Shown: positions 1-46,649, counted from the stretch's first letter. The stretch is 64,000 bases of DNA from Prorocentrum cordatum (GCA_963575745.1 CAUYUJ010000159.1:1-64000); one strand, 5' to 3'. Notes: generated by a model not told the origin, from the letters alone. Translations and numbers: made by a program.

Positions 1-3000
1 TACAACGGTCGATGATGTGAAAAACAATATGTTCCAGTTTATAAAAGAAGAGATCACATTCGACTTCTTCGTTGAAACGTCCTGGCAGTGACACGGAAGG
101 CATCACCGTGTTGCCTGGTTTATCCCAGGCTCGACATTCTCTACACGAGTCACAAATGCCTTTGATCAAACTCAAACGGGTTTCACCCAGACCAACCTTG
201 GTTAGAATCATCCGCATTTTTGGCTCCTTGGCATGAAACCATCTCAGGTGGAGTTTGCGGAGTTCTCGCTGCACTACAGCTGGGTCGAAGCTGCGCAGGT
301 TTTGGAGGCTGAGCTGAACGCCGAAGCGAGTCCAATCAGGGAGCCTTGGCCTTGGCCGTGGCTCTGCTTGAGGCTGCGGCGGTGGTGGAGGATCTCCTCC
401 CTCCATGCGTCCGCGCCTTGCTGCAACTTGTGGCAGTCTACGGTGATCGTCAGAGCTGCCAGCGCCACTGTTGCCACCAATAGCCCCGTCGGCTCTGGTG
501 ATGTCATGGCTGCTGGCGCCTGCGGTTGGATCGCCCTCACCAGGCCGTGGCGGCCTAGGCGCACGTATGCGCGCTCTCGCGGCCGGCGCCGCTTTTGCGG
601 CTGGCGCCGCTTCTGCGGCTGGAGCCGCTTCCGCGGCTGGCGCCGCAGGAGCGGCTTGTCCCGCCGGACGCGGCTGGCCAAAGTTATCCGGCAGTTTCCA
701 TTTTTCGGCAAATCTGCATTGGCCAGATATCTTGGTGTGGTGAGGATTGCTCTTCTGATATTCCTTCTTACAGCTTGGACAGTCCCAGTAATACGGTTCA
801 ACATCATACCACCGACACATCTTCGGGTCCCTACTGTGCTTTGGTGATTGCTTGTAGTTGTTGTCCACACAGCCAGGGCACCCAAGACCGCCAGGTGGTG
901 GTCGACAGATTTCTCCGTTTGGGTGTCTCCGAATTGTTGGGTCGTCCAAGTCGTAGCCAGCACTGTTTGTTACGAACGCATAGCTGCGTTCACGATTCGC
1001 GAATGGATCGCGACCGTAAGCAAACAGGTCTTTGGCGATTTGCACCGCATCAACGATCAATGACTGCATTCTGTAGGTATACTGTGCCGCCCTTGCTAGT
1101 TCTTTATTACAAGCATTGGCGTGCACATGATTACCTGGACAACGCTTGCCTCTGAAAGGTGCCAACAACTCTTCTTTGTTTGCCATCATCTGTGTTGGCT
1201 TGCGGATGTATTGTCCAAATGAATCTTTGAGACCAGTCGTGCACTGATCAATGATTGTTTGGCAAGTGACCTTGCGTTGTGCCAGTTCTTTCCATGGCTG
1301 GATCTCATCCACCCACGTGCCCATTGGTTGTTCCCTGAGGAAGAAACGTCTTAGGTCGTCTTGTAGTAGAGCGACTGTTCCACAGAACGTGATATGAGGC
1401 AGGTCCTCTTTGTGGTGTTTAAGCCACGTATCATGATTGACTTGTGCGTTGAAGTAAGAAGGGAGTCCAGTAGTTCTGCAGCTTGGCTGCAGAATCGTGA
1501 TCTTGACAAAGCAAGTCTTGAGGTAGTGGAGGACTGCTCTCTGTACTTCCGAGTTTCCAAGGTCAACCATAGATATCTTGTCAAGGTTCCCGCCTGACGA
1601 GAGTCCCCTCTTGAAGGCTAATATGGATATACCACCCTTGCCCCCACATACTTCAAGCATGTCCACTTGATTGTTTCTGCCGTAGCATAATGACTGGACC
1701 ATCGAGAAGACATCAGCATGTGAGTCAGCGGGTTGCCCCGCCGGTAACATCATGAAAATGTCCTCTGATTCGCTGTCCGAGTCCGAGTCGTCAAGAGGAA
1801 CGTCGTTGAAATATGTGGAGCAGTCAAGCCCTTTGAGGTCCTCTCCACAGTCGTCGTTACCGTCTTCCACTTTCTTCGGAACTTTCTTCGGTTTGATGCC
1901 GGCTTCTTTGTCAGCTTTCTGCTTTTCTTTCTGTTTTATCCTGGCATCAGTGGGCAACGCGGTTTCCGCGGAGAGATCCGCTGCGGAGGAATCCGCTGTA
2001 AAGTCAGGAAATGGCGGAATTTCAGGAAGGTTGTTGGTGGGTCGCGTTTGGCAACGCTCAATCGAAGGGGGAGGAGATCGATCGTCATCGACGATCGTCA
2101 CACGCTTTGGGCGTGGCCTTCGCGACTCACCATTGCCATGAAGAACTGGAGCCGGAGGCTCCCAGTATAGCCGAGTACTGATGTTTGTAACCCCATCAGG
2201 TAATGGAGCTACATAATTGTACCCAGTTGGCTGATCCTGGATCCTAATGTCTTGAACGATCTTGTTCGTGTCCAGGTCGGTCGTGACCCTACGAACCACA
2301 TGGTCCCATTGAGGGCCCTTCTGTGGACATTGAACGTAGTGTCTGACCTTTTTGTCAACGCGTGTACACACACTGAGGTGTACCGCACTCCGCTCATTCC
2401 TGAACATGTTGGCTTTATCGAGTTGATCAAGGAAGCGTGCAATAATAATAGCCAAAGTTTTATACCGAAACTCGGCACGTTGCTGATCTTGGCCATACCA
2501 ATCCAAATCATGCTCCTTGTGTGATCCACAAGTACATTTCCATAAGTGTATCGGTATATGAGGACAAGATGTAGCAACTTGTATATAAGAACCACTGGGA
2601 TATTTACTGGATCGGTCAAACTTAATGCCGAAATGACAGAGTCTGATTCGTATAACGCTTAGCTTCAAATCTTCAATAACATCTTTGATCGGACCCTGTT
2701 TCCAGAAATACCCGGGTGGCCCCAGGATAACTATCTGCATTCTCAGAGCACGCGCTTTGATCAGGAGATTTTGTATACGTTGATAATGTGGTCCCGCCCT
2801 CTTTCCTGGAGTACGAACGTACCAATCAGAGGTTGTGGCCACCCACAACATATTGTAGTCTCCTGCCAACAAATTTCCCAAATACTGTGTTCCAGTTGAA
2901 GTCATTACCTCATTATGGGTAATCCGGTCGCATATATATCCACGGGTTCGGAGTTCAGCGCAAGCTGTACGAATATCTTCGATGACGAGGCATTTTGAAT

Positions 3001-13899: not shown

Positions 13900-16800
13900 T
13901 CCTCCTCCTCCTCTTCCCCCTCCTCCTCGTCGTCCTCCTCCTCCTCTACCTTCTTGTCCTACTCGTTACATGTCTTATTATCATCCTCCTCCTCTTCCTG
14001 CTGCTCCTCCTCCTTCTCTTGCTCCTCCTCCCTTCTCCTCCTCTTCCTCGGCGTATTAGTTGTATTACTTTTCGTAGTATCTGTTTTTTTCCTCGCCTTT
14101 GTCTTATTATTAGCATCGGTAGTCTGCTCGGTATAAGTATGATACCGGAGAAAAAACCCAATCACGGCTATACGGCTAGGGGGCTATAGGGCTAGAGGGC
14201 TATTGAACTATAGGGCTATAGAGCTATAGGGCTATAGAGTTGTAGGGCTATAGGGTTAGAGGGCTATAGGGCACCCCCGAGCACCCTCGGGCAAGCCCGG
14301 GCACCCGGGCACCCCTGGGTACCCCCCGGGCACCCGGGCGTGCAGCGAAAATCGGCGGCCAACCTCACCCCCGGGCACCCCCGGGCACCCGGGCGTGCAG
14401 CGAAAATCGGGGGCAAACCTATTCGAACCATATGAATCAGCTAGGACCCCTACAGAGGCAAGCTCTGAGTGGGGAATTAGTCGTACTGATAATATTACAA
14501 TTGTTAGTATTATTGGTATTAGCGTGAACATTCGTAGTCATCGTCTTGATTATTAGCATTAACAATAATATCCTTCGTCGCAATATTACTATATCTATCG
14601 TTCACATGTTTTGGATTCGTCTTCATCTGTTCTTCCCATTATTACCCTTATTATCCTTAGTAGTGTTATTAAGATTTGTCTTCTGCATCATCTTACGATG
14701 ATCATGCCTCCCCCGTCTTATTCTTGTTATTCGCCTTCAACGTTTTACTCTTCTTCGCCCTACTATGATTCTTAATGCTATTAGCATTCGTAGTCGTATT
14801 AACCGCCGTGTTCTTCTCAGTGTCGTTCGCATTTGCAGTCGTAGTATTATAACTATTCGCGTTCGACATATGAGTATGAAATCATTATTTCTATGTTTCC
14901 TAGTCGTAGTAGCCTTCATATTCTTCGGAATAGTATCCGTACGCTGTCCAGGATTCTCAGTATTCGTCTGGGTCTTCTCATTACCATGGTGCGTCGTCTT
15001 TTTCATAGTATTACTAGTATTACTACAATTCGCACGCGTACTATTAATACTAATAAGATTGTTCGTCTTCGTCCTTCTCCCCCTCCTCCTCCGCCTCCTC
15101 CGTCTCGTCCGTCTCATCCGTCCCCTCCGCCTCCTCCGCCTCCTCCACCACCTCGGCCTCCACGGCCTCCTCCTCCTCCTCATTGACCTTCTCCTCCACC
15201 TCCCCCATCCTCCTCCTCCTCCTCCTCCATATCCGCCTCTTCCTCCTTCTCCTTCATATCCGCCTTATCCTCCTCCTCCTCCATCTCCTTCTCCTCCTCC
15301 TCCTCCTCCTCCTCCTCCTCTCCTCCTCCTCATCGTCTATCATACTCTCATAATCCTCCTCCACTTCATCCTCAGCCTTCCTGCTCCTATTCAGCCTTTT
15401 TCCTCCTCACTCCTCCTCCTCCTCCTCCTCCTCCACCTCCTCCATCGCCTCCTACTTCTGCCTCCTCCTCCACCTCCTCCTCCTCACTCCTCTCCCTATG
15501 TTCTCCTCCCTACGCCTCCGCCTCCCCCCTGCTCCTCCCGCTCCCCCCGCCCCCGCTTCCTCCTCCCCTCCGCCACCACCTCCTCCTCATCCTCTTCCCT
15601 CCTCCCTCATCCGCTTCCTCCTCTCCTCATCCACCTCTTTCGCTTCTCTTTTTTTTCCACCTAATCCTCCTCCTCCTCCTCCTCCAACTCCTGCTCCTCT
15701 CCCCCATTGCTCCCCCTCCGCTTCCTCCTCCTCGACTCCTCCTCCTCCCTCCTCTTCCTCCTCCTTTCTCCTCCTCCCGCTCTTCCCGTGTCCTCCTCCT
15801 CCTCCTCCGCCCTCTTCCTTTTCCTTTTCCTCCGCCTCCTCCCTCCTCCCCTTCTCCTCCTCCTCCTCCTCCTCCTCCTCCTCCTGCCCCGCCCTCATTC
15901 CCCTCCTCCTTCTCCTCCTCATCATTATTATCCTGCCCTTGATATTAGTATTAAGATTTGTATGTGTATTACGATTCGTAGTGCTATTATTCATCGTATT
16001 ATTATTCGGATTGTTATTATTAGTTTCATTGTTCATCGTATTCCTCTTAGCATTAGTAGTCGTAGAAGTATGAGTTATCTTGTTATTCTTCTTCGTATTA
16101 TGAATCATACTCTTCGTCATCGTATGCTTAGTCTTCTTTTCCGTCTTCTTCTTCCGCATCCTCCACCTCCTCCTGCTCCTCTCCCCACTCCCCCTCCTCC
16201 TCTTCCTCGTCCTCCTCCTCCGCCTGTTCCCCCTCCTCCTCTGATGATCCTCGTTCGTCTTCTTATTCTTCTTACCAGATGTATTACTAGAACAGTATCG
16301 CTAATACAAGTATTTGTTCCTGTATGATTCGTATTCGTGGTATCGACATTGCCATTATGAATATCAATCGGGGTGTCCGTATTATCCTTCATATTGTTAG
16401 TCTAATTCTGCTTCGTACTAGTGTTATTATTCATAAACTGATTATTCTTCTACGTATTAATACTCGTATTCCGCATTCGCCTCCTCCTCCGGTTCCTCCT
16501 CCTCATCCTCATCCTCCTCCTCTTCCGCCTCCTCCTCCTCCTCTTCCTCCTCCTCCTCATCATCCGCCCCCCCCCGGCTCCCCTTCCTCTTCGTTCTCCT
16601 CCTCCCTTCTCTTTTCTCCCCCCTCCTCCCCTCCTCTCCTACTCCTCCTTCCTCCTCCTCCTACCTCCTCCTCCCCTCCTCCTCCTCTTCCCCCAGTTCC
16701 TCCTCCTCCTCCTCCTCCTCCTCGTCCTCCTTCTCCCTCCCCCGTCTCCCACCTCCCTATCATATCCCCCCTCCCTCCCTCCGTCCTCCCCTCCCATCCC

Positions 16801-17372
16801 TCCTCCCTCCCTTCCGCCCCTCCCTCCTGACTCTCCTTCCTCCTCGATCCCTCCCTCCTCCTCCTCTCCTCCTCCTCCTCCTCCTTCCTCCTCCTCCTCC
16901 TCCTCCTCCTCCTCCCCATCATCATCGACCTCCTCCTCCTCCTCCTCCTCCTTCTCATGTTCCTCCTGTTCCTCCGCCACCGCTCTCTCGACCTCCTCCT
17001 CATCCTCCTCATCCTCTTCATGCCCCTCCTCCTCCTCCACCTCCGCCTCCTTTTCCTCCTCCCTCACGTCCTCCCCCTCATCATTATCAGCAACAGCAGT
17101 ATCGTCAGCACCAGCAGCATCAGCATCAGTCTGATCGCCATCGCATTTTTTGTTCATCGCCATCATCAGCATCGCCATCACCATCGTCACCCCCATCACA
17201 ATCATCACCCAGCTCATCACCAGAATCATGACCATCCGCGTCATCAGCATAAGCATCATCAACACACCCGATGCTCCTCGGACTCATCATCATTCTCACC
17301 ACCAGAAACATCAGCATCGTGACCATCACCATCATCACCAGCAGCATCCACAACAACAACATCATCATCATC

Positions 17373-17404
<32 letters not shown>

Positions 17405-18075
17405 CATCGCCACCATTACCACCACGCACAACAGCAAAAACAGCAGTAACACCACAGCCAGCATCAACACCACTGCGAAAACCACCATCATCATCAACGC
17501 CACCATCACCACCACCGTCATCCTCACCATCATCACCATCAACATCACCACCATCATCATAATCATCAACCGGAACATCACCACCACCGCCGTCATCAGC
17601 AGTATCATCACCATCAACAGCAGCATCAGCCTCATCACCAACATGAGCATCATCATCATCACCATCATCATCATTGACGTGAACATCCTCAACATCAACA
17701 ACATCAGCATCATGAAAATCGTTACTAACAGTTTCCTCCGCATCGTCCCCCTCTTCCTCCTCAGTATCATGTTCCTCCTCTTCATCCCCCTCCTCCATCC
17801 CCGACCCCTCCTCCTCCTCATCATCATCATCACCAGCACCACCATCATCATGATTCCTCCTCCTCCCCGTCGTTATCATCATCAGCACCACCTTCAGCAA
17901 CATCATCGTTATATCACCAACAGCATCGTCAGCGGCACCAGCAGCAAGCAACAATATCCTCCTCGTCCTCCTTCTTCCCATCCTCTTTACCTTCTCCATC
18001 ACGTTTATTATCCTTGTTTCCCTCCTCCTCCTCATCGTCCTTGTCCTCCTCCTGATCACGTCCTCCTCCTCAGTT
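13900..18075. repeat. Degenerate (CCT)n / (TAT/CGT)n / (CAT)n microsatellite mosaic, with TAGGGCTA and CCCGGGCA short repeats at ~14170-14410
   Basis: Directly visible low-complexity triplet runs. Confidence 0.9.
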
Positions 18076-28650: not shown

Positions 28651-29289
28651 GACGGCCTGTGGGCGCGCCGCCGTGCGCGGCCGCATCCTGCTGGAGATGG
28701 CCTGGCACCCACGGCGCGGCCGTCCGGCGGGCCTGGCGCCATGCTGGACAGCGGAGCAGCGCGGCCGCCCACCAGATAGGGTGGCCGCAACCTGTCAAAG
28801 AAAGCGCGGTCCGCGCCTGTGGGGCGCCGCAAGGTAGACCGGGGACAGCTCTGTCCCTGATGTCTGATCTCCTGGGAAACCTCCTGGATGTAGAAAATCT
28901 GGGAGGCTAAGGATATCATGTGTAATACTCCTCTGCGAGGCCGGGAATTCGCCAACTTGAACCAAGTTGGGTACGGAAGACTGATATGGGACATCTTGGT
29001 TGGGTTTGCCGTCTCGCTGGGGGTCACGGAGCTACCAAGACGGCCGAAAAAGGCGACCAAAGCCACCAAGAGTCTCAAAGCCCAAGAGGGCGCAAGAGAG
29101 CCCCAAGACGGCCCAAGAGAGCCCCAAGGGGCCTTTAAGACTGCCCTACATGAGCCCTGCACAACCCTCATACATGACCTCCATGAGGACTTCAACAAAA
29201 GAACATACGGAACATGCAACATGAAAAAGCCTTCCTCTTCCACCTCCCCCTCCTCCTTCTCCTCCTCGCATTCGTCGACAACTTGGACT

Positions 29290-31014
<1,725 letters not shown>

Positions 31015-31269
31015 TGAGGAGCGGCATGGGCGCACAGGCGGCGGAGTGCGGGCCGGCGACGACGGCCCCGGTGGCGACGGCTGCTTGCCCCGCGCTGCCG
31101 CATGGCTCAAGAGGAGAAAGGCCCCCCTCCTCCCTCTCCTCAGAGGCGCGGGGGAGGCGCGGGGGGCCTACCCGGGGTCCGAGGGCCCGCGAGGGCCCAT
31201 AGGGCCCGAGGGCGGCACCTGGAGGCCGCTCTCGAGGCCCTGAGGGGCCGAGGCTCCAGGTGAGCCTCA
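31015..31269 (+). repeat. 5' LTR of element B
   Basis: Identical by eye to 43229-43483, with TGAGG/CCTCA inverted termini. Confidence 0.95.
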
Positions 31270-31271
31270 CG

Positions 31272-31289
31272 TGGGGGCTGCTCCGGGAA
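31272..31289 (+). promoter_or_regulatory. Primer-binding site, tRNA-Pro type
   Basis: TGGGGGCTGCTCCGGGAA, 2 nt after the LTR, closely resembles the MLV tRNA-Pro PBS TGGGGGCTCGTCCGGGAT. Confidence 0.8.
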
Positions 31290-31320
31290 ATCGTTTCCCG
31301 AGCGGGCCCGGGCCCGGGCG

Positions 31321-34300
31321 ATGGCGTCGCCCCAGCGCGCGCCTCGCGCGGAGCTGGGCGACGCCGACGCGGGCGACGTCGAGGCGGGCGCGGAGGCTGG
31401 CGCGCCGTCGGCGCAGGCGGCCGCGGCCCCAGCAGCGGCGGCGGCCGGCGCTGGCGTGGAGGTCGCCGGCTTCGAGGGCTCGCTGCTGGAGGCGATCGCC
31501 GACGGTGCCGTGGCGCAGCCGCCGCTGCTGGCCTTCGGCGCCTGGGTGCAGTGGCGCGCCGGCCCAGGTCGCCGGCTTCGCACTGCGCCCGCGATCGCGG
31601 CCAGCGAGAGCGCGTTGTGGCGGAGCACCATGGAGGCGCTGCACGGCCAGGACTGGCAGGCGCGGCTGCGCCAGCAGGGCCCCGCCGCGGCGCGCAGCCC
31701 CGCGACGCCAGCGGCTGCGCAGCCGCCGGCGGCCGACGACGTCCTGCGGCTGCTGGACTCGCCGGCGCGCGCGTCCGACGCGGGCTCCGACGCCACTGGA
31801 GCCCTGTCGGACGGCAGCTGGGGGCCGCTCACGGACGACGAGGTCCTGGAGCGGCTGCTCAAGGACGTGGAGCCGCACGAGTCGATGCGCGACTTCGAGC
31901 GGCGCCTGCTGCGCGCGCGGGCTGTGCTGACGCTGCGGCGGCAGGCGGTGCCGGAGGGCGCGGTCGAGTTCGGCATGAGGGAGGCCCGCTTCCTGGTGGA
32001 GGCGCGGGCCCACGGCGAGGGCGTGGCGGCCGCGCTGGAGGCGAAGCTGCACGCCGTCCTGGACGTCGAGACGGACGACGCCGACGAGGACGTGCGGGCG
32101 CTGATGGACCTCCTCGCGGTGGTGCGCGGCGGCGGCAGCGCTCGCGACGCCGTGGCCGGCGGGGCGCCGGCGCGGCCCCCGCAGGACCGAGCCCCGCCCG
32201 CCGGGCCCGCCGGCGTCGGCGTGGCGCCCGCGGGGCCACCCGCCTTCCCCGCCTTCGGCGAGGACCTGCCGCCGGGGCTTCCCCCGCGGGGCGGGCCGAC
32301 CGAGGCGGGCCCGGCGGGGCCCAGCTTGGCGGCAGCGCTGCAGGGCCTCGCGGGGGCGCTCGGCCAGCGGGCCGACAAGAAGTCGTCCACGATCCAGGTG
32401 AAGCCGCACTACAGTCTGCCGACGCTCGGCGACGGCGACTTCGACGTGGACTCGTTCGTGGAGGAGTTCGAGGAGATGGTCGGGCTGGCCAACGACGGTG
32501 CGGGGATGTCGGCGACGGAGATGGTGCGTGTGCTGGGGACCTGCCTGAAAGGCTCGCGTCAGCGGGCTTACAAGGTCGAGCTGCAGCAGGCTCGCCGGTC
32601 AGGCAGGCTGTCGGCGGATCCCGACGAGGTGTACCAGAGCCTGAAGGAGCGGCTGATGGAGTTCAAGGAGGGCTTGCTGGAGAAGCAGCAGCGGCTCAAC
32701 GCCGAGTGGAGGACGCTCTCCCGCGGCAAGATGAGCGCGCTGGAGTTTCAGGCGACGTTCGAGAACATCGTGGCGGAGATGGGGCTGGCTGGGATGGGCA
32801 AGTCCGATCGCGACCTGCTGCTCAGCTACCTGGCGCTCATCCCTCCCTCGCACCGTGCAGAGGTGCTCAAGGATCGCCGAGTGTATCAGCGCTCTGGCGC
32901 CCAGCCCGAGGTCCGCGGCGTCGAGACCTGGAGGGAGGCCCATCGCGTGCTGCTGAAGCTGGAGGAGGCCGAGAGCTCGGCCAAGGCGCTCGTCGCGGCT
33001 GTGGGCTCGGACTTCGCGCCCAGCCCGGGCGGCGGCGGTGGCCGGCGTCGGCGCGGTGGCGGTGGCGGCGATCAGGAGCCGCCCGAGGTCGGCGCTGTTG
33101 GCGGCTCCGGCGGCGCCGGCGCTGAGGGTGCTGTGAAGGTCTGCTTCCAGATGAGGGACAGCGGCACGTGTGCGCGTGGCGACGCCTGCAGGTTCTCGCA
33201 CGACCGGGCTGCCATCGCCGAGTCCCGGAGGACCAAGAAGGACGCTACCGGGCCGAAGGGCAAGGGCGCGGACGGCAAGAAGGGCAAGGGCTCGGACGAC
33301 GGCGGCAAGGGCGGCCTCAAGTCGCAGCTCTGCCTGCAGTTCCTCCGGGGTGCGTGCAGCAAGAGCGAGAAGGACTGCAAGTTCAGCCACTCGGGTAAGG
33401 CAGCTCAGAAGGTCATTGCAGCGGTTTACGCTGGCGCGGCCGCAGCTAAGGCGCCGCCGCCAAGCCTCGGCAGCGCGGGCTCCCCCGGCAGCGGCCAGGG
33501 AGCAGCGCCTGCGGCCGAGGAGGCGGCGCGGCCCGCAGCCTCTGGCGCGGCGCCGAAGGTGCAAGCTGCGGCGGGGGGCAAGCTCGAATGGGTGCGACCC
33601 TGTGGCGGCGTCTTCGGCCCGAGCTACGACCTCCCGCAGGTGAGCGTCGTCAGGGGCTCGCCCTCGCCCGAAGGAGCTCTGAAGGACCTGGACCAGATCC
33701 CCGCCAGCGCCTGGACGCAGGTGCAGGAGCCCGACGACGGGTACCACTACTTGTGCCACACGCATGTCTACGGCCTCAGCATCAGGACGCTCCTTGATGG
33801 CGGGGCGGTGTTCTCCCTGACGTGGGAGGCGACGATCGTCAGCATCATCAACAGCGCGATCGCGGAGGGCAAGTCTCCTGAGGACCCCGACTGGCCGATC
33901 GCGGGCCTGATGCACTGGGGCCGGGACTCGAAGGCCTCGTCGGTGGCGGACAAGGGCGACCTGAAGATTCGTGGCATGGTGGACCTGCGCCTGGCCTTCG
34001 AGGGGCTGGATGGTACGCGAGTGGTGCGTGTGTTTCGCCTTCGGCTTCTGCGCGGGGGTTGGGACAGGCCGTTTCTTATCATTCTTGGGGCCCCAGCGCT
34101 CGATGCACCCCCTCTGGGGATCGGGCACCGGCCTACGCTACAGGGCCACTACTTGCCGGGGCTGGGCATCACGGTCAAGCGTGCGGAGGCCGACGCGGTG
34201 CAAGCGAAGCTGTTGACCATCTCGGCGGTGTTCTCAGAGTGCGATGCCGATAAGCGTCGAGGTGAGGATCGTCGGGCTGCCAGTGCGGTAGGATCCCTGG

Positions 34301-36470
34301 TGTGGTCCGGCGCGGCCTGCCCGAGCTACCCCATCTGCATGGTCGGCGGCCAGTGCCCCGCGGAGTTCGGCGGCGGCGACACAGGCGTGATCGTGCTCGA
34401 CGACTCGGAGTCCGCCGTCCCCATCTACCTGAGCGGCGTGGAGGGCGTGCGGCTGGAGCTCGGCGACTGCGCTCTGGTGCCAGCCCGCGCTAGCGGCCTC
34501 GCAGCGGGTATCGTCGGCGACGTGGTGGCGAATGGCGCGGCGGCCGTCTGGGCCGCCCCCGGCCCTTGGCTCGGCCGGGAGCAGCTCGTCCTGGTCGGCA
34601 ACTGGGACCAGCCCGGCGTCAGCATCGAGGTCGGCGACATCGTGGGCGCCGTGATCCAGACCGACGGCGAGCCGGCCGGCGACGACCCGTCAGTGGCGCA
34701 CGTGTGGCAGGATTGGGACGAGCTGCGGGACATCGTTGAGCTGGAGGTGCCGACGGACGAGTACTACGCCGAGCGTCTAGTCTACTGGCAGCGGAAGTAC
34801 CCGAAGGCGGCCACCACCCTCCTCGAGCATCTCTTGGCGGTCGAGGGCCTGCTGGACGTGTGCATCGCGGCCGGGTACTCCATGGGTGCCGAGAAGTCCC
34901 TCGACAGGCTGGCTCAGCCCTCCGTCGAGGCGCTCGGCGAGATCGTGGGCCGCGAAGGCAGCGAGGCGTGCGAGCGGCATCTGGAGCTTATCAAGAACTG
35001 GTCGGTGCTCGAGGACGTGGCAGCGCTGCGGCGGTTCCTCGGCACGTTCAACTGGATCCGCGGCCACTTCCCCAAGGAGGTGCAGAAGCCGCTGGGGATC
35101 CTCACGCAGCAGCTCAAGAAGGACGCCGAGTGGCCGATGACCTCCGAGAAGGTTGCGGCCCAGCGCGCCATCCAGCAGCTCGCGTGCGAGGCCATCCGCC
35201 TCGCGGTGATCGACATGGTCGGGGCGATCTCGAAGGACCGCCCGCTCGAGCAGGTCGCGGATTTTTGCCCCTACGGTTGGGGTGGCAGCGTGTATCAGCT
35301 GGCCGCCGACCGCCGCACGCTCAACGTGCTGGCGATGTACGGCGGCTGCCTCAGCTTGGCGCAGAGCAATTGGCACCCCCGCCGGGGTGAGCTGTATGCG
35401 CAGCGCGAGACCAGGCGGGAGGCACGTAAGGATTTCGGTCGGCTGCCCGCCCTGTGCTGGACGGACCACGCGGCAGCGGTGAAGGGCGCTACGGGCGAGG
35501 CCGAGACGGACTCCACCGTCATCCGCTGGGTTGGCGAGATCGAGAGCGACGGCAGCAGGCTGATGAATCTCTCGGGGCGGAGCGCGGCCCTTGGTGATGG
35601 CCCCTCCCGAGAGAACGAGGCCCACGGCAAGTTCCTGCGCGAGCAGGCTAACTCCCTGGCGAACATCACGATCGAGGACATCATCGGCGATGACTACCGT
35701 CCGGGGGAGGGGGTCCCGTGGGGCCTTGACGAGACCCCCCTCGCGGCCGCCTTGCAGCTGGTGGCCGTGGCCGGGGCGGAGCGCGAGAAGGGCGACTCCA
35801 TCGCGCTGCACCTGCCGGACTACGGATGCGAGAGGCGGCGGAGCGCAGAGCAGGCGCGGGCAGCTCGACAGCTGCAGCTGGCGGCGCCAGGCCTGCGGCT
35901 TCGCATGATCCCGCACGACCCTCCGCTGGCAGACGGTGCCGGCGGCCTGTACTACATCGCGCCTCCTCGCTTCCCAGGTGATGCGAGTGGTAAGGCGCGG
36001 AAGCAGCTTCGCAATGACGTGCTGACCGCAGTGGCCGCCGTCTTGCGAGAGTGTGCCGCGCGGTGGCCCAAGGTCGTGATCGGGACGGGCCACGGCGGGC
36101 TGGTGGCGGCTGCAGCGGCCCACCCCAGAGTGGTGGAGGCCGCTCTCGCGCTGCGGTACGCGAGAGAGGCGGAGGGCATGCAGGTCGCGGAGGCGTGGGT
36201 GAACGTCAGGGCGTTCGTGGCGATCGGGCCGCGCGCCCACAGCCCGAGCAGGATCGGCTTTGTGCGAGAGGCGTTTCCGGAGTTCGGAGCGACTGCCCAC
36301 GGCGACGAGCGCCCGGCCCCCCTCTATTTGGTGGAGGGCGCCGGGGCGCACCGCCGTTTCGGGCAGGACCTCGGCGAGGCGCTGGGCGTGAAGGTGTCGG
36401 CCACGCTGGGCGAGGTCCTCATGCAGGAGGTGGTCTCTGCCCCCCCGCGGCTGCTGGAGTTCAGCGGCGG
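31321..36470 (+). CDS. Element B ORF1 (frame stays open to 37623): Gag with two CCCH fingers, aspartic protease, RT C-terminal half (thumb/connection), RNase H, alpha/beta-hydrolase-like domain
   Basis: CFQMRDSGTCARGDACRFSH and CLQFLRGACSKSEKDCKFSH; LLDGGA...IILGAP; LEHL...VEALGEIV...IKNW...LRRFLGTFNWIR; VADFCPYGWGG...AQSNW...GELYA...WTDH...IRW; VVIGTGHGG. Confidence 0.9.
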
Positions 36471-39400
36471 CGCTGCGCGTGCGGGCGGAGTTCGCTGGTG
36501 CTGGCGCGGTGCGGCCAGTGCATCAGGGCCGACCGCGAGCTCGAGGAGGAGGCGCGGCTGGCTGAGGCGCCGGAGGAGGCGTTCGGGGAGCCCGACGCGG
36601 TCGACGTGGCGGCCTCGGCGGCGCGCATGCGCGCGGTCCGCCCGCAGCCGGCAGTTGCCGTCGGGCCTGGCCCCTGCATCGCCGTGTCGGCGGAGCTCGT
36701 GCGGGACCTCCTGGAGTTTGGCGGCGGCCGAGCGGATTTCACGTGCAACTGCATCCGGGTCCGCCGAGCGCCGGCCGCGGGCGTCGTGGCCTTGGAGGCC
36801 GCGCGGGGTTTCTCCTATCGGTTGTCGTGCTTCGTCGTGCCACAGGGGCCCGAGCCGGGCGTGGAGGTGGCGCTGGCGCAGCCGTGCGTGGAGTTCGGGC
36901 TGGAGCTCGTCACGGAGATCGACGTGGAGCTGCTGCAGGCGGGCTTGCCGAAGGGCGCCGAGCTGGTCCAGCTCTTCGCCTGCGCCTGGCTGCTGTGGGA
37001 GGGCGGTGCGCGCCTCCCCGCGCTGGGCGCTACTCACGTGCATCGGCACTGCAGGGGGTCGGCCGTCAGCAACGGTGCGATCATCAAGGTGTCCTCCTAC
37101 TCCTCCGCCTACTCCGAGGTCTTCGCGGGCGCCCTGGGGCTATCATGGTACCGGGCCCTCCGCGATCGCTTCGGCGGGCGGGCATCAGGAGCCTTCGTCG
37201 AGTTCGCGGACTCCGACTTCGCGCGCGGCGAGCGGGAGGCCTTCGAGGTGCCGGACGTCCTCGGGGCGATCACCAACATGCGGGCGCCGGCGTCTGAGCA
37301 GGCATGCTCCGTCGGGCGCGTGGCATGCGCCCCGGAGCGCGGCACTGCAGCCTTCGACGCGGAGGTGGCGGACGGGCGCAAGCTGGAGGACGCCGACATC
37401 GCCATCAGGGAGGAGTACGCCGCGAAGGTGCGGGGCTGTGAGCCTGAGGCGGGGAGCGAGCCGTTCGAGCTGTCCAAGTCGCTTCGTGCCCACATCATCG
37501 GGGACCAGTGGAAGGACGAGGAGCTCGGGGCCGTCTGCATGCAGCTCCGCGCCGAGTCTGGCGCCGGCGACACCCCCGAGGCGCAGCGTCTCGGGGAAGA
37601 CTTCGCGCTCGAGCAGTTCGTGACGGTGGGCCCAGGGGAGCAGCGCTGGCTGCTTGTCCTCCCTGCGTCTGGCGGCCCGGGCTCGGGTATATCGTGGAGG
37701 CGCTTCATCTTCCTCCACGTTCACGCTGGTCCGTCTGGGGGTCACAAGACGGTGGTCGCCACTCGTGAGTGCGCCCGGCGGCTGGTGGTTTGGCCGGGGC
37801 TCGCGGCGGACATCGAGAAGTGGTGCGCTAGCTGCTGGGCCTGCCTCCGATTCAGGAAGCAGACTACGAAGGTGCAGGCCAGCTTCATCGTGGCACGGCA
37901 CCGGCTTCCTTTTCATCATGTGGTCATCGACGTGGAGGGCCGCATCACTCCCCCCGACGTCGACGGGTACGCGTATGTGCTGACCTACATCTGCGTGACG
38001 ACGGGGGCCCCCCTTCTTGAGCCGCTCAAGCACCTGCAGCACTCCGAGGTCCGGCGCGCCTTCTTTCGATGCGCGACTCGGGCCAAGACCTGGCCGATGC
38101 TGGTTAGTTCGGATCGTGGCAAGGAGTTCTGCAACGCTCTCATGGAGGAGCTCTGGGCGCTCCTCAACTTCGCAGGCCGCTTCGGCACGTCGTGGAGGCC
38201 CTGCGAGCAGGCGGACGCGGAGCGGTCCCACATCGAGTGTGCGAGGGAGATCGGCATCTTCCTGCACGACGTTTTCAAGTGTGCCCCCGGCCAGTGGGCC
38301 GAGCTCCTGCCGATCGTCGAGTTCGCGTTGTGGAACTCGCCCGGCAAATCGGCGCTGTCGCCGAGGGACCTCTGCATGGGGTGGTCGTTGGCTTCGCCGC
38401 TGGAGAGGGAGCTGCTGCCGCTGGAGCCCGCCGTTCGTGAGGCAGTCTCCGACGTCGCGGCAGCGCAGTTCGAGCAGTTCAGGCGTTTGCGGGAGGTTTA
38501 TCTTCAGCATCGGGCTCGAGCCGGCCGACGCAGAGCGGAGCTGGCTAATCGCACGAGATCGTCGAGGCGCCCGGAGGTCGGGGACATGGTATTGTTCAAG
38601 GACCCGAAGCTCTCCAAGGCCGTGGCCGGGCACGCCCCAGGCCGCCGGCCCCTACGCGGCCCCTTCGAGGTCCTCTCCACGAAGGGCAACGTGGCCACGT
38701 TGCGGGACCCCGAGACCCAGCAGGTGCTCAAGGACATCCACGGGGATTTCTTGGTCGGCGTCCCGGGCTTGGTGGACGACACGGAGCGCATCGTGAAGCT
38801 GGAGGAGGACGACGGCCGTGGCAGGGCCTCTGCCGGACAGCTTCTGGCAGCGCGGCTGGCCCCTGGAGGCGGCGAGGCCGCCGAGGCGCTGGCGCCGCGC
38901 GTGAAGGCGCGGATGCGAGAGGTGAAGGTCGGGCGGCTCGTCGCCTACCAGGGCGAGGAGGCGAAGCGCTGCCGGGTGGGCAAGGTGCTGAGCCTGGCTC
39001 AGGACCTGAGCAGCGTGACGGTGCACGTGTACCAGGCGGCGGTCGACGGACGGCTGCAGGTGGTCTGGACAGCGGCGTACGACCGCCAGGAGGGCGCGGA
39101 CTTCCAGCGGCAGAGAGTCGAGACGCTGGAGGCGAAGCGGGTGCTGGGTGTCGTGGAGCTCAACAAGGGCGTTCTGAACCACTCGGCGGCGAGCAGGCTG
39201 GCGCGGGCCGGCTGGCGGCTGGACGAGGGGACCGTACGGCACGGTGCCTTGGCGGCGGCGGCAGTGGCGCCGGCCGCGCCACGGCTCTCCGACCTCCCCT
39301 CGAGCCGCGTCATCGCGCTCGTCGCAGCTTGCCGTCCGCTCGAGGAGCTCGACCTGAAGATCGGCGAGGTCCAGGCGTGGGCGCACGGCGTTCCCCTCTT

Positions 39401-42400
39401 CGTGGAGATCTTCGATGGGGTCGGGAGGCTCTCGCAGGCGGTCCAGAGCTTAGGCGCTGCCAACGCGGTGTGCAGCGTGGTGGCCGGCGTCGACCTCAAG
39501 CGCAGGACGTACGGACAGTACTGGGACCTCAGCAGGGCTAAGGACCGTGCCCGGCTTCGCTACCTGCTCTTCGAGGTGCTGAGGCCGGCAGGAGCCCACT
39601 GGGCGCTCCCCTGTGCGAAGTGGAGCAGCCTCGGTGGCCACCAGCCCGACGCCAACGCGCACGCGCTGGCCTCCTTCACCATGGACGGCCTCGAGCACCT
39701 CGACGGCGCGGGCTGCCTGGCCTCCTTCGAAGGCCCTCGAGCGCACGCGCTGGTGGCAAGCGCGGAGTGGCAGCAGCGGTTCGGGTCAGCCGAAGCGCCG
39801 CGCGGGCGCTGGCGATACGTGCTCCCCGACGGCTGCATGTTCCACTGCAGGAGCCCGGACGAGGAGCCCCTGGCCATGCAGAAGCCGTACGTCATCGGGG
39901 GCAACTTCCCGCTGGACTTGCTGGACGTCCAGTGCCGCCGTGGAGCGCTGCGGCCGCTAGGGCGCGGCCTCGAAGGCGTCGAGGTCGCCTCCGCGGAGCT
40001 GGGCGGCGACGCCGGGAGCTCCATGATCGGAGCCGCGCGGGCGCCGGAGGGGCCTCGCATGCCCTGCGAGCCGGGGCGCGCGGCCGCTCCGGCTGCTGGG
40101 GTGACGAGGTCGGTGGACAAGCTGAGCGACGCTGAGATGGCGGAGAAGAAGGCGCGGCGGGAGCCGGCAGCGGCGGCGGCGAAGAAGAAGTGGGCCGAGC
40201 TGGCCAAGAAGGGTGACTGGGACCAGGTGCGGATGCCCGGCAAGTGCTTCAGGTTTGCCGAGGTGAAGGTTTCGCCGAGGCGCTCGGCAGAGTACAAGGC
40301 TAAGGTTCTGGAGGCGGTCGGGCTCGTCGGCGAGTGCGCGGGCTACAAGCACCTGGGCAGCCAGGAGCTGGAGGCGCTGAAGGAGATGATCAGCCTGAAG
40401 GCCGAGGCGTTCTGGGTGAAGGGCACCGCGCGGACGGTCATGCGCGGCTTCAAGCACGACGTGGTGACGACCGGCTTGCCTGTGCGTGGGCCGCCGATCC
40501 GCCTTAAGGGCCCGGAGGCTTCCATCGTCCGCGAGGAGCTCGAAGCGGGCGTGGAGCAAGGGCTGTACTCCAGGGGGACCTCGCCCTGGGGCAGCTGGGC
40601 CTTTCCGACCAAGGAGCACGCGAGCGGCCGGAGGCGTCGGACCGTCGTGGACTACCGCATGGTCAACCGCAGGATGGTGATGTTCGTGTACTACATCCGC
40701 CGGTGCCGAGACGTCAAGGGCGAGCTGGTGGGCTGCGCCTTCATCTCTGGCATGGACGGCGCTCGCGGCTTCAATCTCCTGGTCAACACTGAGCACGCGA
40801 AGGAGGTCCTGGCTGTGCTGGCGGACTGCGGCTGCTACCTCCCCGAGGTGCTGCAGCTGGGGCCAGCGACGGGGCCCTTCGACTTCCAGTTCTGCACCGA
40901 CGAGCTGTTCACTGGCACCGGCCGCGGACGCTACGGATCGGTTTGGAAGAACTACATCGACGACTTCTGGGTCAGGACGGGGCAGTGGCTGAACGGTCGC
41001 GCCTACACCGACCGAGAGTACGAGGAAATGCTGGCGGCGGCATCCCCCCCCCCGGCTGCCTCTCGCCCGCTGGGCGACTCGCTGGCAGCAGCCGGGTTCG
41101 CGGGGACCCGCAAGGCCAGCCAGAGCTACGACCACGCCAAGGGCGTGCTCGTGGGGCTGTGCGTGGCGCAGTCGGCCACGGGAGCGGCGGCTATGGAGGG
41201 CGGCGGCGTTGCCTTGGCGAACGGCCTCCGCATGCTGGTGGTGGCTGCCGCGGTGCGCACGGCGTCCTTGGTGGATGAAGGGCTGCGCGCGGGCGTGCAG
41301 CTGACTCAGGACATCTTCGAGGCGGCTGGCGACCTGGTCCAGAGCGTCTCCTGGAACCTCAGCGGGCTCATCCACGAGGTGTGCGAGGGGGCGGTCCTGG
41401 TGGTGCGCGTCCTGGTCGTCGTGCAGTGCTGCTACGCTCTCTACTGCCTGCGCTCGTGGGTGGCTTGCCGTTCGCAGCGGGCGGCGCTGGAGCGGGCTGC
41501 CACCGCCGGCGAGGCGGCTCAGCGCGGACTCACGTCCAGCGCGCGAGCCTGCGAGGCCGGCGACGGGCCCGCCTTCGGCCGCGAGCCGATGGCCAGAGCG
41601 GCAGCCGCTGGGAGGAGCCCGAGCGGGGCCCTCTCAGCAGCAGATGGCGCCGCCAGCCCTGTGGTGGCGCTGTGGCGCGAGGCGGAGTTCGAGACGCCCC
41701 TGCTCGGAGCGGCGGCACGCCCCCGAGCGGAGGTCCTCCAGATCCAGCGGAGCGCGGCGGTGGCGCTGCGGGACCTGGAGCACTCGGACCGCCAGCGCGC
41801 CGCGCGCGCGCGCGACCTGACCGCTTGCGGTGCGGTGGTGTCCGCAAAGCTGGTGGAGGCTGCGCGCAGCTCAGCAGTGAAGGACGCGGGCGACCTGTGC
41901 GAGTTCGAGGTTGAGGTGGCCGGCAGCCGCGGCGTGCGGTACGATGTGCGGCTTCGCGCTGGACGCTTGGCCGCAGCGTTGCTCCCCGCATCGTGCACCT
42001 GTGCGGACTTCTTCGGCGGCGTCGGCAGCCCCTGCAAGCACATCGGGGCGGCCTGGTGCTGCGCGGTGGACGGCAACTTCAGCGAGCTGGTGGAGCTGGC
42101 GCTCGCGGCTGGCCGCAAGGAGGGAGCTGCCGCTGGACCTCAGCGACGCGCAGCCCTGGCGCCGAGCGACTCCCTTGGCCTCGCGGGGGCCGTGCGGGAG
42201 CTCCGCGACTCGGAGGCCGAGGTCGTGCGCCTGCGCGAGGAGGTCCAGCAGCTGAAGGCGCAGCTGGGGGCGACCTCCAGGCGCGGAGCCGTGACCGAGT
42301 TCCTCTCGGCGTCGGAGACGCTGGCGGCTTGGGCGCGGGCTTGCGGTGAGGCCGAGAGCTATGTGCATGTGGCGTGCTTCACCTTCGACCAGCCGGGCGT

Positions 42401-42770
42401 GGTGAACTACCTGGAGGCGGCTCGAGCTCGAGGCCTCACAGTCCGTTTGGTGTTCAGCGGCCGTGACAAGGCCCTGACCAACAACCAGGGGCCGCGCCTG
42501 CAGCGGCTCCGAGCCTGTGGGTGCGAGGTGCGCGCTCACAAGGGATCGCGGCTGCACGCCAAGGTGATGATGACAGAGCGCGAGATTGTGCTGGGCAGCT
42601 GCAACTTCACGACTGCCAGCTTGGGCAACGTGGAGCGCGGGGCCAGCCTGCAGGAGCTGTCCGAGGAGACGGTGCTCGAGCAGAAGGAGTGGTTCGAGCA
42701 GCTGTTCGAGGCGGCGTCGCCCTTCAAGGACGGGATCGGCGAGGTGGTGCCTCCGTCGCCGGCCCGGTGA
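36440..42770 (+). CDS. Element B ORF2 (-1 frame; ORF track 36051..42770): integrase, C5 DNMT-like domain, RT fingers/palm (YIDD), hydrophobic segments, SWIM finger, PLD-family nuclease
   Basis: Integrase: H..GGH...WPGL...CWAC, VVIDV...SDRGKEF...AERSH, GPF. DNMT: VEIFDGVG...LPC...FEGP. RT: SPWGS...RTVVDYRMVN...MDGARGF...LQLGP...YIDD. SWIM: CTC...CKH. PLD: LHAKVMMTE...GSCNFT...NVE. Confidence 0.9.
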
Positions 42771-42778
42771 GGGCGCCG

Positions 42779-43037
42779 CGAGGCGCTGGAGGCCGGCTGG
42801 GCGCGAGGCCTGGCGGCCGTGGCGCTGAGGCGCGAGGCGCTGGAGGCCGGCTGGGCGCGAGGCCTAGCGGCCGTGGCGCCGAGGCGCGAGGCGCTGAAGG
42901 CCGGCTGGGCGCGAGGCCTAGCGGCCGTGGCGCCGAGGTGCGAGGCGCTGGAGGCCCGCCGGGCGAGAGGCCTAGCGGCCGCGGCGCGAGGTGCTGGAGG
43001 CCATCTGGGCGAGAGGCCCAGCGGCCGTGGCGCCGAG
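42779..43037 (+). repeat. 54-bp tandem repeat (about 5 units) in 3' UTR of element B
   Basis: CGAGGCGCTGGAGGCCGGCTGGGCGCGAGGCCTAGCGGCCGTGGCGCCGAGGCG units start at 42779, 42833 and onward. Confidence 0.85.
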
Positions 43038-43213
43038 ATGGCAGGAGCGCGGCATTTTGCTGCGCCGTCGACGCCCGGCAGCGCCGGGAGCTATGAGCGA
43101 CTGCATGGCGCCGAGTTCGGCGACTTCGAGGAATTCATCGACTTCAATTTTGTGGAGCGGCACGTCGCGGAGGACGTGCCGGGGCGCCTGTGCCGCGGAG
43201 TGGTGCCCTGCTC

Positions 43214-43224
43214 GAGGAGAGGGG
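43214..43224 (+). promoter_or_regulatory. Polypurine tract
   Basis: GAGGAGAGGGG, 4 nt upstream of the 3' LTR. Confidence 0.75.
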
Positions 43225-43228
43225 CACG

Positions 43229-43483
43229 TGAGGAGCGGCATGGGCGCACAGGCGGCGGAGTGCGGGCCGGCGACGACGGCCCCGGTGGCGACGGCTGCTT
43301 GCCCCGCGCTGCCGCATGGCTCAAGAGGAGAAAGGCCCCCCTCCTCCCTCTCCTCAGAGGCGCGGGGGAGGCGCGGGGGGCCTACCCGGGGTCCGAGGGC
43401 CCGCGAGGGCCCATAGGGCCCGAGGGCGGCACCTGGAGGCCGCTCTCGAGGCCCTGAGGGGCCGAGGCTCCAGGTGAGCCTCA
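43229..43483 (+). repeat. 3' LTR of element B
   Basis: Identical by eye to 31015-31269. Confidence 0.95.
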
Positions 43484-45075
<1,592 letters not shown>

Positions 45076-45258
45076 GGGTTACCCTTAGTCTCCTTTACCA
45101 TTCTTGAATGAATTGTAGAGCGTACGGGTTCGGGTTCGGGTTCGGGAAGGCGCCCGCGATACAAAAAAACACAAGCATATGCGACATCTACTACGTACAT
45201 GTAATAAAGATCCCACTGGGCAGTGGAACTTCTCTGGAATCGGCGGAACAAACACTTG

Positions 45259-45542
45259 GGGTCGCGTATGGGTCGCGGGGTGGGTCGCGGGGTGGGTCGC
45301 GGGGTGGGTCGCGGGTGGGTCGCGGGGTGGGTCGTGGGGTGGGTGGGTCGCGGGGTGGGTCGCGGGGCGGGTCGCGGGTAAGTCGCGGGGTGGGCCGCGG
45401 GGTGGGTTGCGGGTGGGTGACGGGCGGGTCACTGGGTGGGTCGCGGGGTGGGTCGCGGGTGGGTCGCGGGGTGGGTCGCGGGGTGGGTCGCGGGGTGGGT
45501 CGCGGGTGGGTCGCGGGTGGGCCGCGGGCGTGTCGGGGGGGG
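45259..45542 (+). repeat. G-rich 12-mer minisatellite (GGGTCGCGGGGT)n, G-quadruplex-prone
   Basis: Directly visible regularly spaced G3/G4 runs. Confidence 0.85.
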
Positions 45543-46649
45543 GCGACGACAACAACAACAAACATAATCCCCCCCGCGCATCCCCACTTCAGCCACGCAC
45601 CCAAGAACAAAAAATGAGCGTTCGGCCCCCTTCACTCTGATATAAATATAATAAAATCCCCCTGGAAAATGGAGCCCCTCTGGGATCGGCAGAAACGGCC
45701 ATTTGTTGTGTAGAATTGGAATACGGATCTTTCTGGAAAGTGGAACTTCTCGGGATTCGGTCGCACAAACAACTTGGTATGAAGCTTTGTAGCACGGTTC
45801 CCTCTGGCAACTTGAGTTTCTCGGAATTCGGTAGCAAACGCAACTTGTAGTTGGAATTGTAATACGGATCCCTGCGAAAACTGGAGCTTCTCGGGAATCG
45901 GCACGCGCGTACAAACTAACGCCTTTTCCTCCTCTTCCTCCTTCTCCTCCTCCTCCTCCAGCTCCGCCTCCGCCTCCTCCGCCTCCGCCTCCTCCTCCTC
46001 CTCCTCCTCCTCCTCCTCCTTTTCCTCCTCCTCCAATTCAGACTTCCTCCAATTCCACCCAGAAATGGCGCTCCCGCTCAAGAGTTCCTTCAATGGCACT
46101 CAGAAGTGAGCCTCCCGCCTGAGACTTCCTACAAGTTCAAGGCTGAGAGGCCCGATAATGACGACAGCGTTATGGTTTGTATGATTGCATGAAATGCAAG
46201 CATGAGCTGCGGATCCTTTTGAAGCAAGGGCTCCCGCTTGAGACCCCCTCCAACTCCACTCAGAAACGAAGCTCCCGCTCGACACTTGCTCCAACTTCAC
46301 TCAGACATGACACTCCCGCTTGAAACGTCTTCCAATTTCACTCAGAAATGAGCCTCCCGCTTGGGACTTCCTACACTCTCAAAGCTGGGAGAACCAACGA
46401 TGGCGACCATTCTATGTTTGTATGATTCACTGAAAGTCAAACATGAACTGCGGAATATTTAAGAACAGGGGCACCCGCTCTAGATTTCCTCGGGTTCCAC
46501 TCAGAAATGAAGCTCGCGTTCCCAACTTCTTCCGATTTCACTCAGAAACGACGCTCTCGCTTGCGACTTCTTCCAATTTCGTTCAGGATTGGCCCTCCCG
46601 CTTGGGACCTGACAGGGTCATATTCCGCTAACATAGACCACGTGTTGTC

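Follow-up and report, generated by a model that had tools for sequence, protein, structure and literature searches.

A reverse transcriptase split after its YxDD strand and encoded in swapped order in a Ty3/gypsy-like retroelement of Prorocentrum cordatum

To our knowledge, a contiguous unit of reverse transcriptase (RT) and RNase H is treated as fixed in all long terminal repeat (LTR) retroelements and retroviruses, and the order of the domains serves both for classification and for automated detection. A stretch of 64,000 nucleotides from the dinoflagellate Prorocentrum cordatum (GCA_963575745.1, CAUYUJ010000159.1:1-64000; this whole stretch is referred to as the window) contains an LTR retroelement of 12,469 bp with a G+C content of about 70% (positions 31015-43483). 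The original prediction, which was made from the sequence of the window, had proposed that the RT of this element is split after the YxDD motif and that the part which normally follows is encoded upstream. Is the enzyme indeed divided in this way, is the arrangement a property of a family or an accident of one copy, and could the two pieces still form a polymerase?

Two complementary pieces of one reverse transcriptase

The element, all features of which are given on the plus strand, possesses two overlapping open reading frames, ORF1 (31264-37623) and ORF2 (36018-42770). The motifs of the RT fingers and palm were found in ORF2 (residues 1478-1652, nucleotides 40449-40973), with the YIDD motif at nucleotides 40953-40964. 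The LEHL helix, a primer-grip-like segment, the thumb, and RNase H were found in ORF1 (residues 1187-1440, nucleotides 34822-35583). The order of the two pieces is thus swapped, with a distance of about 5.6 kb between them, and the approximately 1,900 intervening residues include whole enzymes. The N-terminal half of the RT (40335-41111), which is delimited by the profile A2 introduced below, comprises an N-terminal extension, the fingers, palm motifs A-C, and a conserved tail (VRTGQ...TDxEYE). The C-terminal half (34822-35223), assigned by means of the profile A3 and a structure match, begins with LEHL, the helix of the palm, and further contains strands resembling a primer grip, the thumb, and the connection. 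It is preceded by a family-specific leader (34684-34821; H..., followed by a P-T-x-E-Y-Y helix), which was recognised by its conservation and in a structural model. The RNase H domain (35224-35583) follows directly and was identified by a match to RT_RNaseH, a structure match, and its D/E/D columns.

Pfam searches with the single sequence of the window resulted in weak matches (RVT_1, E 0.31; RT_RNaseH, E 0.0015); in the relative L017, the match to RT_RNaseH reached E 8.9e-11. Further single-sequence searches matched the RT of cauliflower mosaic virus (CaMV; 8r0s_A) at two complementary places, namely 180-294 and 316-431. Decisive were family profiles of the RT half (A2, 30 sequences) and of the thumb-RNase H piece (A3, 17 sequences). 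A2 matched CaMV RT with 2.5e-17 (chain positions 148-319) and Ty3 RT (4ol8_A) with 5.1e-12 (65-233). A3 matched Ty3 RT with 3.6e-15 (227-454), CaMV RT with 1.6e-10 (315-416), and 7q5b_A with 2.5e-15. These matches indicate that both RT and RNase H are related to those of Ty3/gypsy elements and caulimoviruses. The chain ranges of A2 and A3 on Ty3 and CaMV RT imply that the two pieces together cover an ordinary RT-RNase H from one end to the other, and the junction of the ranges is located just past the YLDD strand of Ty3.

A canonical profile, which was composed of seven ordinary contiguous gypsy RT-RNase H segments, split in two on the window. Its positions 44-221 matched residues 1449-1630 of ORF2 (2e-13), and its positions 243-469 matched residues 1185-1451 of ORF1 (0.039). 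When the whole window was scanned in six frames with these three profiles, A2 covered residues 1440-1698 of ORF2, and no second copy of either RT half was found at E<0.05. The original prediction, according to which no YxDD motif precedes the upstream half and no thumb follows the downstream half, is in agreement with this result. At the level of the encoded sequence, the tiling by A2 and A3 and the two swapped matches of the canonical profile show that the RT is split in a loop just after the YxDD strand and that its parts are in swapped order.

The single-chain model of the thumb-RNase H piece reached a predicted local distance difference test score (pLDDT) of 74.9; the scores of the leader helix (residues 25-38) were between 74 and 90. 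The model aligned to 8r0s_A 243..459 with Z 13.0 and a root-mean-square deviation (rmsd) of 7.6 (202 aligned residues), and to 4ol8_A 253..459 with Z 10.7 and rmsd 7.2 (170 aligned residues). Its RNase H part aligned to RNase H1 structures with Z 10-11 and rmsd 2.5-3.

An origin of the permuted order by duplication and truncation is plausible. Duplicated leftover ends had been hinted at by the ORF1 segment EYYAERLVYW, which aligned to the YVDD strand of foamy-virus RT, and by the canonical profile, which ran past YxDD in L017. The idea of such a leftover overlap was dropped, as a profile-profile comparison of A2 with A3 yielded a probability of 0.2%.

Relatives with the same layout

DNA fetched around relatives comprised 59 loci from metagenomes and nine from genome bins labelled as bacterial or archaeal. 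In 63 of these 68 loci, the match of the RT half reached the YxDD motif. Of these 63 loci, 46 had at least 600 nucleotides downstream, and none of the 46 contained a thumb-RNase H piece within 1.5 kb past YxDD. Both halves were present in 17 loci, and 16 of these divergent homologues share the layout of the window, in that thumb and RNase H are encoded upstream of the RT half and in the same orientation. In relatives, 4.4-9.0 kb separate the two halves. The 16 loci stem from metagenomes and bins, show the permuted order at 28-48% amino-acid identity, and often encode it in one ORF; no similarity at the DNA level was found between them and the window. The order of protease, contiguous RT-RNase H, and integrase, which is characteristic of Ty3/gypsy elements, is absent from the window and from 16 of the 17 loci. 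The exception is L007, where the thumb-RNase H piece is located downstream, after gag and the protease-like region. This order looks like that of a tandem or wrapped assembly, as is also hinted at by L004.

With the thumb-RNase H piece as query, proteins of 39-53% identity were detected. P0003 and P0005 contain the protease-like region, the beta domain, the thumb, and RNase H, and the fingers and palm are not found in between. An exhaustive search with the RT half yielded 1,438 cluster representatives at E<=1e-3, a number that includes ordinary gypsy-type RTs (27-29% identical), and 56 representatives at E<=1e-30. In the long close relatives P0109, P0034, and P0010, integrase, methyltransferase-like region, and RT half follow each other in that order and are succeeded by unrelated tails, never by a thumb. 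P0169 (53% identical) lacks thumb and RNase H, and its thumb-half leader is directly followed by a Cys-rich stretch and then by the hydrolase-like domain; this protein is either a deletion derivative or an artefact of the gene model. The nine loci from bins (L060-L068) belong to this eukaryotic family and carry the labels Rickettsiales, Methanobacteriota, actinobacterium, Planctomycetaceae, and others. Their placement looks like contamination or misbinning.

The ratio of nonsynonymous to synonymous substitution rates (dN/dS) was determined separately for the two pieces. For the closest pair of loci, L016/L066, it is 0.022 in the RT half and 0.048 in the thumb-RNase H piece, and L021/L026 gave 0.107 and 0.082, respectively. 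Synonymous sites are saturated in the remaining pairs of loci (proportion of synonymous differences, pS, 0.74-0.88), whose proportion of nonsynonymous differences (pN) lies between 0.07 and 0.35. The two halves of a given pair hardly differ in pN, which is expected if they have long been inherited together. Judged from these substitution patterns, both pieces are under strong purifying selection. The arrangement had been predicted to be one that was mobilised, and its recurrence in deeply diverged relatives under such selection bears this out.

The Asp of motif A and both Asp residues of YxDD are invariant in the 30 sequences of A2, and the D, E, and D columns of RNase H are invariant in the 17 sequences of A3. 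The latter sequences also share the residues H6, P23, and Y27 of the leader, as well as H49, D58, G68, K71, G85, R90, G92, F118, G120, N123, and R126 of palm D/E and thumb. The tail after YxDD reads (L/I)T(V/I)R(T/S)GR ... TDxE in most subfamilies and is reduced to ATGR in the divergent loci L032, L036, L041, and L067. The conserved extensions at the two new ends, namely this tail and the leader, may help the pieces to dock.

The element, its reading frames and its further domains

The element is bounded by LTRs of 255 bp (5' LTR, 31015-31269; 3' LTR, 43229-43483), which have the termini TG...CA and are identical (0/255 mismatches). The element is a recent insertion, as was proposed in the original prediction, in which apparently identical LTRs were among the grounds given. 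A putative 4-bp target-site duplication, TACT (left, 31011-31014; right, 43484-43487), was read from the sequence; it lies inside an (ACT)n microsatellite and is therefore weak evidence if taken alone. A putative primer-binding site with TGG two bases past the LTR, which was assigned to no tRNA (31270-31290), and a polypurine-tract-like run directly before the 3' LTR (43214-43224) were likewise read from the sequence. Repeat analysis revealed 54-bp tandem repeats (42723-43087) in the region from the stop codon (42768-42770) to the 3' LTR. No further copy of the element or of its LTR was found in the 64-kb window. Near-identical copies are represented by P0161, which is the closest protein with a species name, is labelled Prorocentrum cordatum, and is 99% identical across 90% of the RT-half query, and by P0160 (92% identical). 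The latter repeats the RT half, the membrane-like segment, the SWIM finger, and the PLD domain, and its C-terminus lies at the same point. The existence of several such copies fits recent activity. In the gene model of P0161, 26 residues are missing immediately behind the conserved tail that ends the RT half (window position approximately 41040-41117), which corresponds to a called intron or to a real 78-nt deletion.

The coding part of ORF1 (frame of 31264) starts with the first ATG and stops where the frame changes (31321-36476), and homology to relatives ends at approximately 36476. A comparison with relatives revealed that the transition from ORF1 to ORF2 (36466-36482) is a one-base shift. 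All three relatives that cross this point, namely P0009 (81% identical upstream), P0006, and P0169, are in frame there. Moreover, both halves are contained in one stop-free ORF in 11 of 16 related loci, and the other five change frame at differing places. Neither of the hallmarks of a programmed -1 frameshift was found, that is, a slippery heptamer (X XXY YYZ; none at 36466-36482) and a shift conserved in relatives. These findings contradict the proposal that a frameshift sets the ratio of the two halves. They also render it doubtful that the copy in the window is intact, as had been assumed. This copy is probably defective, or a base was mis-called; a mutation, an error of reverse transcription, or an assembly error may have caused the shift.

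Most relatives thus encode both halves in a single ORF, from which they are produced in a ratio of 1:1, and one giant polyprotein is the norm of the family. The stop-free frames comprise 6,924 residues in L017 (2-20773), 6,901 in L016 (2-20704), 6,247 in L011 (2-18742), and 5,984 in L014 (3-17954), and most of these long frames run off the ends of the loci. The four frames hold retroelement domains together with Tpt1 and PLD-like domains and would rank among the longest ORFs of retroelements.

The order of the polyprotein is gag with CCCH fingers, protease-like region, beta domain, the RT piece consisting of palm D/E, thumb, and RNase H, hydrolase-like domain, zinc ribbon, integrase, methyltransferase-like region, the RT piece consisting of fingers and palm A-C, membrane-like segment, SWIM finger, and PLD domain. 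Two CCCH zinc fingers mark the end of the gag-like region (33136-33393; zf-CCCH, 3.3e-4, 20.9 bits at a cut-off of 20.5; zf-CCCH_DUS3L, 5.8e-6). The second of them was read from the sequence, and CCCH fingers are also present in L011. The protease-like region (33781-34113; LLDGGA ... ILGAPAL) is kept in relatives at 27-32% identity. The beta-rich domain between protease and thumb half (34324-34668) has no Pfam match, and relatives contain a Cys-rich insert without RT motifs at this position. A guess from motifs that this domain is a dUTPase found no Pfam match, and no such claim is made.

Downstream of RNase H lies a conserved, weakly alpha/beta-hydrolase-like domain with the motif G-x-G-Q/H-G-G (35584-36468). 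Abhydrolase_6 was matched in one of 13 relatives (E 0.009), and the profile of this region identified nothing significant in the PDB. The coding part of ORF2 starts with a Cys4 zinc-ribbon-like motif and a conserved region (36474-37637), which is 55% identical to P0009 and has no Pfam match. The integrase (37698-38207) consists of an H2C2 zinc finger and a DDE core. The match to Integrase_H2C2 (PF17921) is 6.3e-11 with 42.7 bits at a cut-off of 25.5, and the match to rve is 7.7e-6 with 26.5 bits, below the Pfam cut-off of 32.6. The C-terminal region of the integrase and a further conserved region (38538-39377) are shared by 18 loci at 27-37% identity, again without a Pfam match.

The subsequent region (39378-40217) is weakly C5-methyltransferase-like. 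An alignment of this region (A4) shows conserved columns of the types F-x-G-x-G, P-C, and E-N-P, which we take to be the C5-methyltransferase motifs I, IV (PC), and VI (ENV). PF00145 was matched in three of 16 relatives (best E 0.013) and gave no match on the sequence of the window; the profile of the region found nothing significant in the PDB. Of the three domains that had been predicted between the RT halves, the integrase is well supported by its match to Integrase_H2C2, and the sporadic matches to PF00145 and Abhydrolase_6 hint at a DNA methyltransferase (DNMT) and a hydrolase. In the divergent loci L041, L067, and L068, no methyltransferase-like region was found between integrase and RT half. 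In L041 (1672-2272) and L067 (3299-3899), a stretch just upstream of the thumb half presumably resembles a C-terminal motif of C5-methyltransferases.

A hydrophobic, membrane-span-like region (41115-41477), which was read from the translation and has no Pfam match, follows the N-terminal half of the RT. It was ruled out as a thumb, since neither A3 nor the canonical profile matched it. The window shares with several relatives such a membrane-span-like segment just behind the RT half. In several loci, segments of this type also directly precede the leader of the thumb half, but the thumb half of the window is not preceded by one. Such segments thus adjoin the two ends that would have to meet. 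The C-terminal part of the polyprotein contains a SWIM zinc finger (41940-42053; PF04434, matched with E 0.003 and 17.5 bits at a cut-off of 19.6, which is not reached), which is also found in P0160. The polyprotein ends with a PLD-like (HKD) domain (42345-42704; PLDc_2, 8.6e-13), which is also located at the end of the L011 ORF (5.7e-14). In relatives, the RT half is followed by a Tpt1/KptA RNA 2'-phosphotransferase (6.4e-27 in L011), and the PLD-like domain lies about 8 kb further on.

The surroundings of the element (29170-30900 and 43490-45000) are a long imperfect (ACT)n / (ACTACG)n microsatellite. Shortly 3' of the element, a G-rich tandem repeat with a unit of 11-12 bp (GGGTCGCGGGGT-like) occurs in at least 17 copies (45242-45560). 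Positions 14001-18000 of the window display an extreme strand composition over 4 kb, with GC skews of -0.48 and -0.67 and AT skews of -0.38 and -0.21. On the minus strand, an open frame of 1,324 residues (4365-8336) encodes Tpt1/KptA (8.1e-16), the domain that also succeeds the RT half in related elements, and a RING finger, and the six-frame scan gave no match of the RT-half or thumb profiles near it.

Reassembly of the polymerase and its alternatives

The element most plausibly belongs to an old, large Ty3/gypsy-like LTR family of dinoflagellates and other marine protists whose RT is circularly permuted in a giant polyprotein and reassembled from two segments. We assign this explanation a probability of roughly 0.65. 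The segment with the fingers and palm A-C would dock non-covalently onto the segment consisting of palm D/E, thumb, and RNase H, and the active site of the polymerase would thereby be rebuilt. Docking could take place either inside the uncleaved polyprotein or following cleavage by a putative protease, and it might be aided by the conserved extensions at the two new ends, namely the post-YxDD tail and the leader that precedes LEHL. We infer the reassembly of the RT from comparisons of sequences.

Several points weigh against this explanation. The break is inside the palm, which is a drastic cut site for a polymerase, and a two-piece pair of this kind is not known to have RT activity. The RT half was modelled as a single chain with a mean pLDDT of only 59.8 and with stretches of the palm below 50. 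This poor model aligned to 4ol8_A 22..215 (Z 13.6, rmsd 5.3, 151 aligned residues) and also to HIV-1 RT 1..187, in agreement with the tiling, but these structural matches need caution. For the putative protease that would separate the pieces, the best PDB matches of the profile are to retroviral-like aspartic protease 1 at a non-significant E of 0.13, and there is no Pfam match. The frame shift makes the coding capacity of the window copy itself uncertain. In eight long related loci no direct repeats of at least 80 bp were found, and both LTRs were seen only in the window.

The two pieces might instead work apart. The upstream piece would then be an RNase H with a nucleic-acid-binding platform, and the fingers and palm would use an unrecognised substitute for palm D/E and thumb or would have another activity. 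This agrees with the fact that the RT half has its own conserved N-terminal extension and post-YxDD tail, and that, within the upstream piece, conservation is highest in RNase H (59% identity versus 51% for the thumb in P0003). However, the sequence past the conserved tail differs among subfamilies, being membrane-like in the window and of low complexity followed by Tpt1/KptA elsewhere; no common thumb substitute therefore follows the RT half. The many invariant residues of palm D/E and thumb are hard to explain for an orphan thumb, and the almost equal pN of both pieces in each pair likewise weighs against a separate function, which we regard as rather unlikely. It is far less probable that contiguity is restored after transcription or translation, by a back-spliced or circular RNA or by ligation of protein ends. 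As both pieces share the same frame in most relatives, they could be joined in frame if the intervening length is a multiple of three, and the residues missing from the P0161 gene model are located after the RT half. Yet protein conservation crosses both putative junctions, and the giant ORF stays open far past them. Neither junction offers an intein-like nucleophile, and an intein-like join was rejected on the basis of the conserved end residues (...VRTGR... and H-I/V-V-E...).

The frame shift of the window copy and the many other RT genes reported for dinoflagellate genomes in passages of PMC11453091 would also suit a family that does not polymerise autonomously and relies on canonical retroelements to copy it in trans, its RT pieces being relics. 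Relics, however, would not give dN/dS values of 0.02-0.11, saturated synonymous sites, and invariant catalytic residues in 30 and 17 sequences, which makes this scenario highly improbable. The recurrence of the same order in 16 independent loci of 28-48% amino-acid identity, often in one ORF and with no similarity to the window at the DNA level, leaves hardly any room for the possibility that the order was produced by misassembly, by a nested insertion, or by a rearrangement confined to the window copy.

An RT with a cut in its palm and a swapped order of the encoded parts appears unprecedented. The RNA-dependent RNA polymerases of Birnaviridae and Permutotetraviridae have a permuted palm with the motif order C-A-B and are still functional. 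They resemble the RT of the element in combining a right-hand fold with a permuted order, but their permutation is local and within one contiguous domain. The p66/p51 heterodimer of HIV-1 RT and engineered split RTs derive their activity from two polypeptides, and the fold tolerates being handled in parts. In contrast to the pieces studied here, p51 repeats the p66 chain in truncated form and does not complement it as a fragment, and the engineered splits are artificial.

With Ty3/gypsy elements (Metaviridae, e.g. yeast Ty3), the element has in common short direct LTRs of the TG..CA type that are flanked by a repeat of 4 bp, zinc fingers in a gag-like region, and an integrase with an N-terminal H2C2 finger and a DDE core; Ty3 and caulimoviruses provide the closest sequences of RT and RNase H. 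The differences concern the order, as the canonical succession is protease, contiguous RT-RNase H, and integrase, whereas here the C-terminal half and RNase H are placed before the integrase and the N-terminal half after it. In addition, two CCCH fingers take the place of the CCHC zinc knuckle of Gag, many extra domains are present, and the ORFs of the family comprise 4,000 to more than 6,900 residues.

LTR elements that bear a Dam-like enzyme, with one clade having a methyltransferase between integrase and RT, are described in passages of bioRxiv 10.64898/2026.05.21.726589. They share the succession of integrase, methyltransferase, and RT motifs with the element, and the order in Gmr1 elements is likewise comparable. 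However, the Dam-bearing elements are described with an ordinary RT and an adenine methyltransferase, whereas the region studied here is weakly C5-like; the terms "thumb" and "domain order" do not occur in this preprint. DNMT-bearing retroelements of dinoflagellates or algae include, according to passages of PMC5890265, the LINE- and DIRS-type elements SymbioLINE-Dnmt and SymbioDIRS-Dnmt3 of Symbiodinium and the gypsy element KnitGypsy-Dnmt3 of a charophyte. Like the element, they contain a cytosine-methyltransferase-like domain in their polyprotein, and DIRS forms have shuffled domain orders. Unlike the element with its DDE integrase and LTRs, the LINE forms use an endonuclease and the DIRS forms a tyrosine recombinase (passages of PMC5890265). 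By means of Pfam, no tyrosine recombinase or apurinic-type endonuclease domain was found in the element, and Integrase_H2C2 and rve were matched instead. A two-piece RT is not mentioned in the main-text passages of PMC5890265, bioRxiv 10.64898/2026.05.21.726589, PMC10449503, PMC11453091, and PMC6338049. More generally, no relevant description of a split, permuted, bipartite, or fragmented RT or of these domain combinations was found in the literature searched, which lay outside subscription journals and Repbase-type catalogues.

It is tempting, though still speculative, to regard the enzyme as the first natural RT whose active site is composed of two segments that are encoded 4-9 kb apart, with the palm cut and the order swapped, and to consider the late position of fingers and palm in an ORF of 4,000-7,000 residues an integrity check. 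In that case, only fully translated, undamaged copies would gain polymerase activity, and copying in cis of intact elements would be favoured. A widespread, selected family in which the palm is cut would mean that separate segments can naturally restore this fold, and would offer a natural model for split and permuted polymerases. The layout also explains how the family escaped domain-based annotation, as is illustrated by the weak match of RVT_1 and by the relatives in bacterial and archaeal bins. The family may constitute a sizeable unannotated part of the very large genomes of dinoflagellates.

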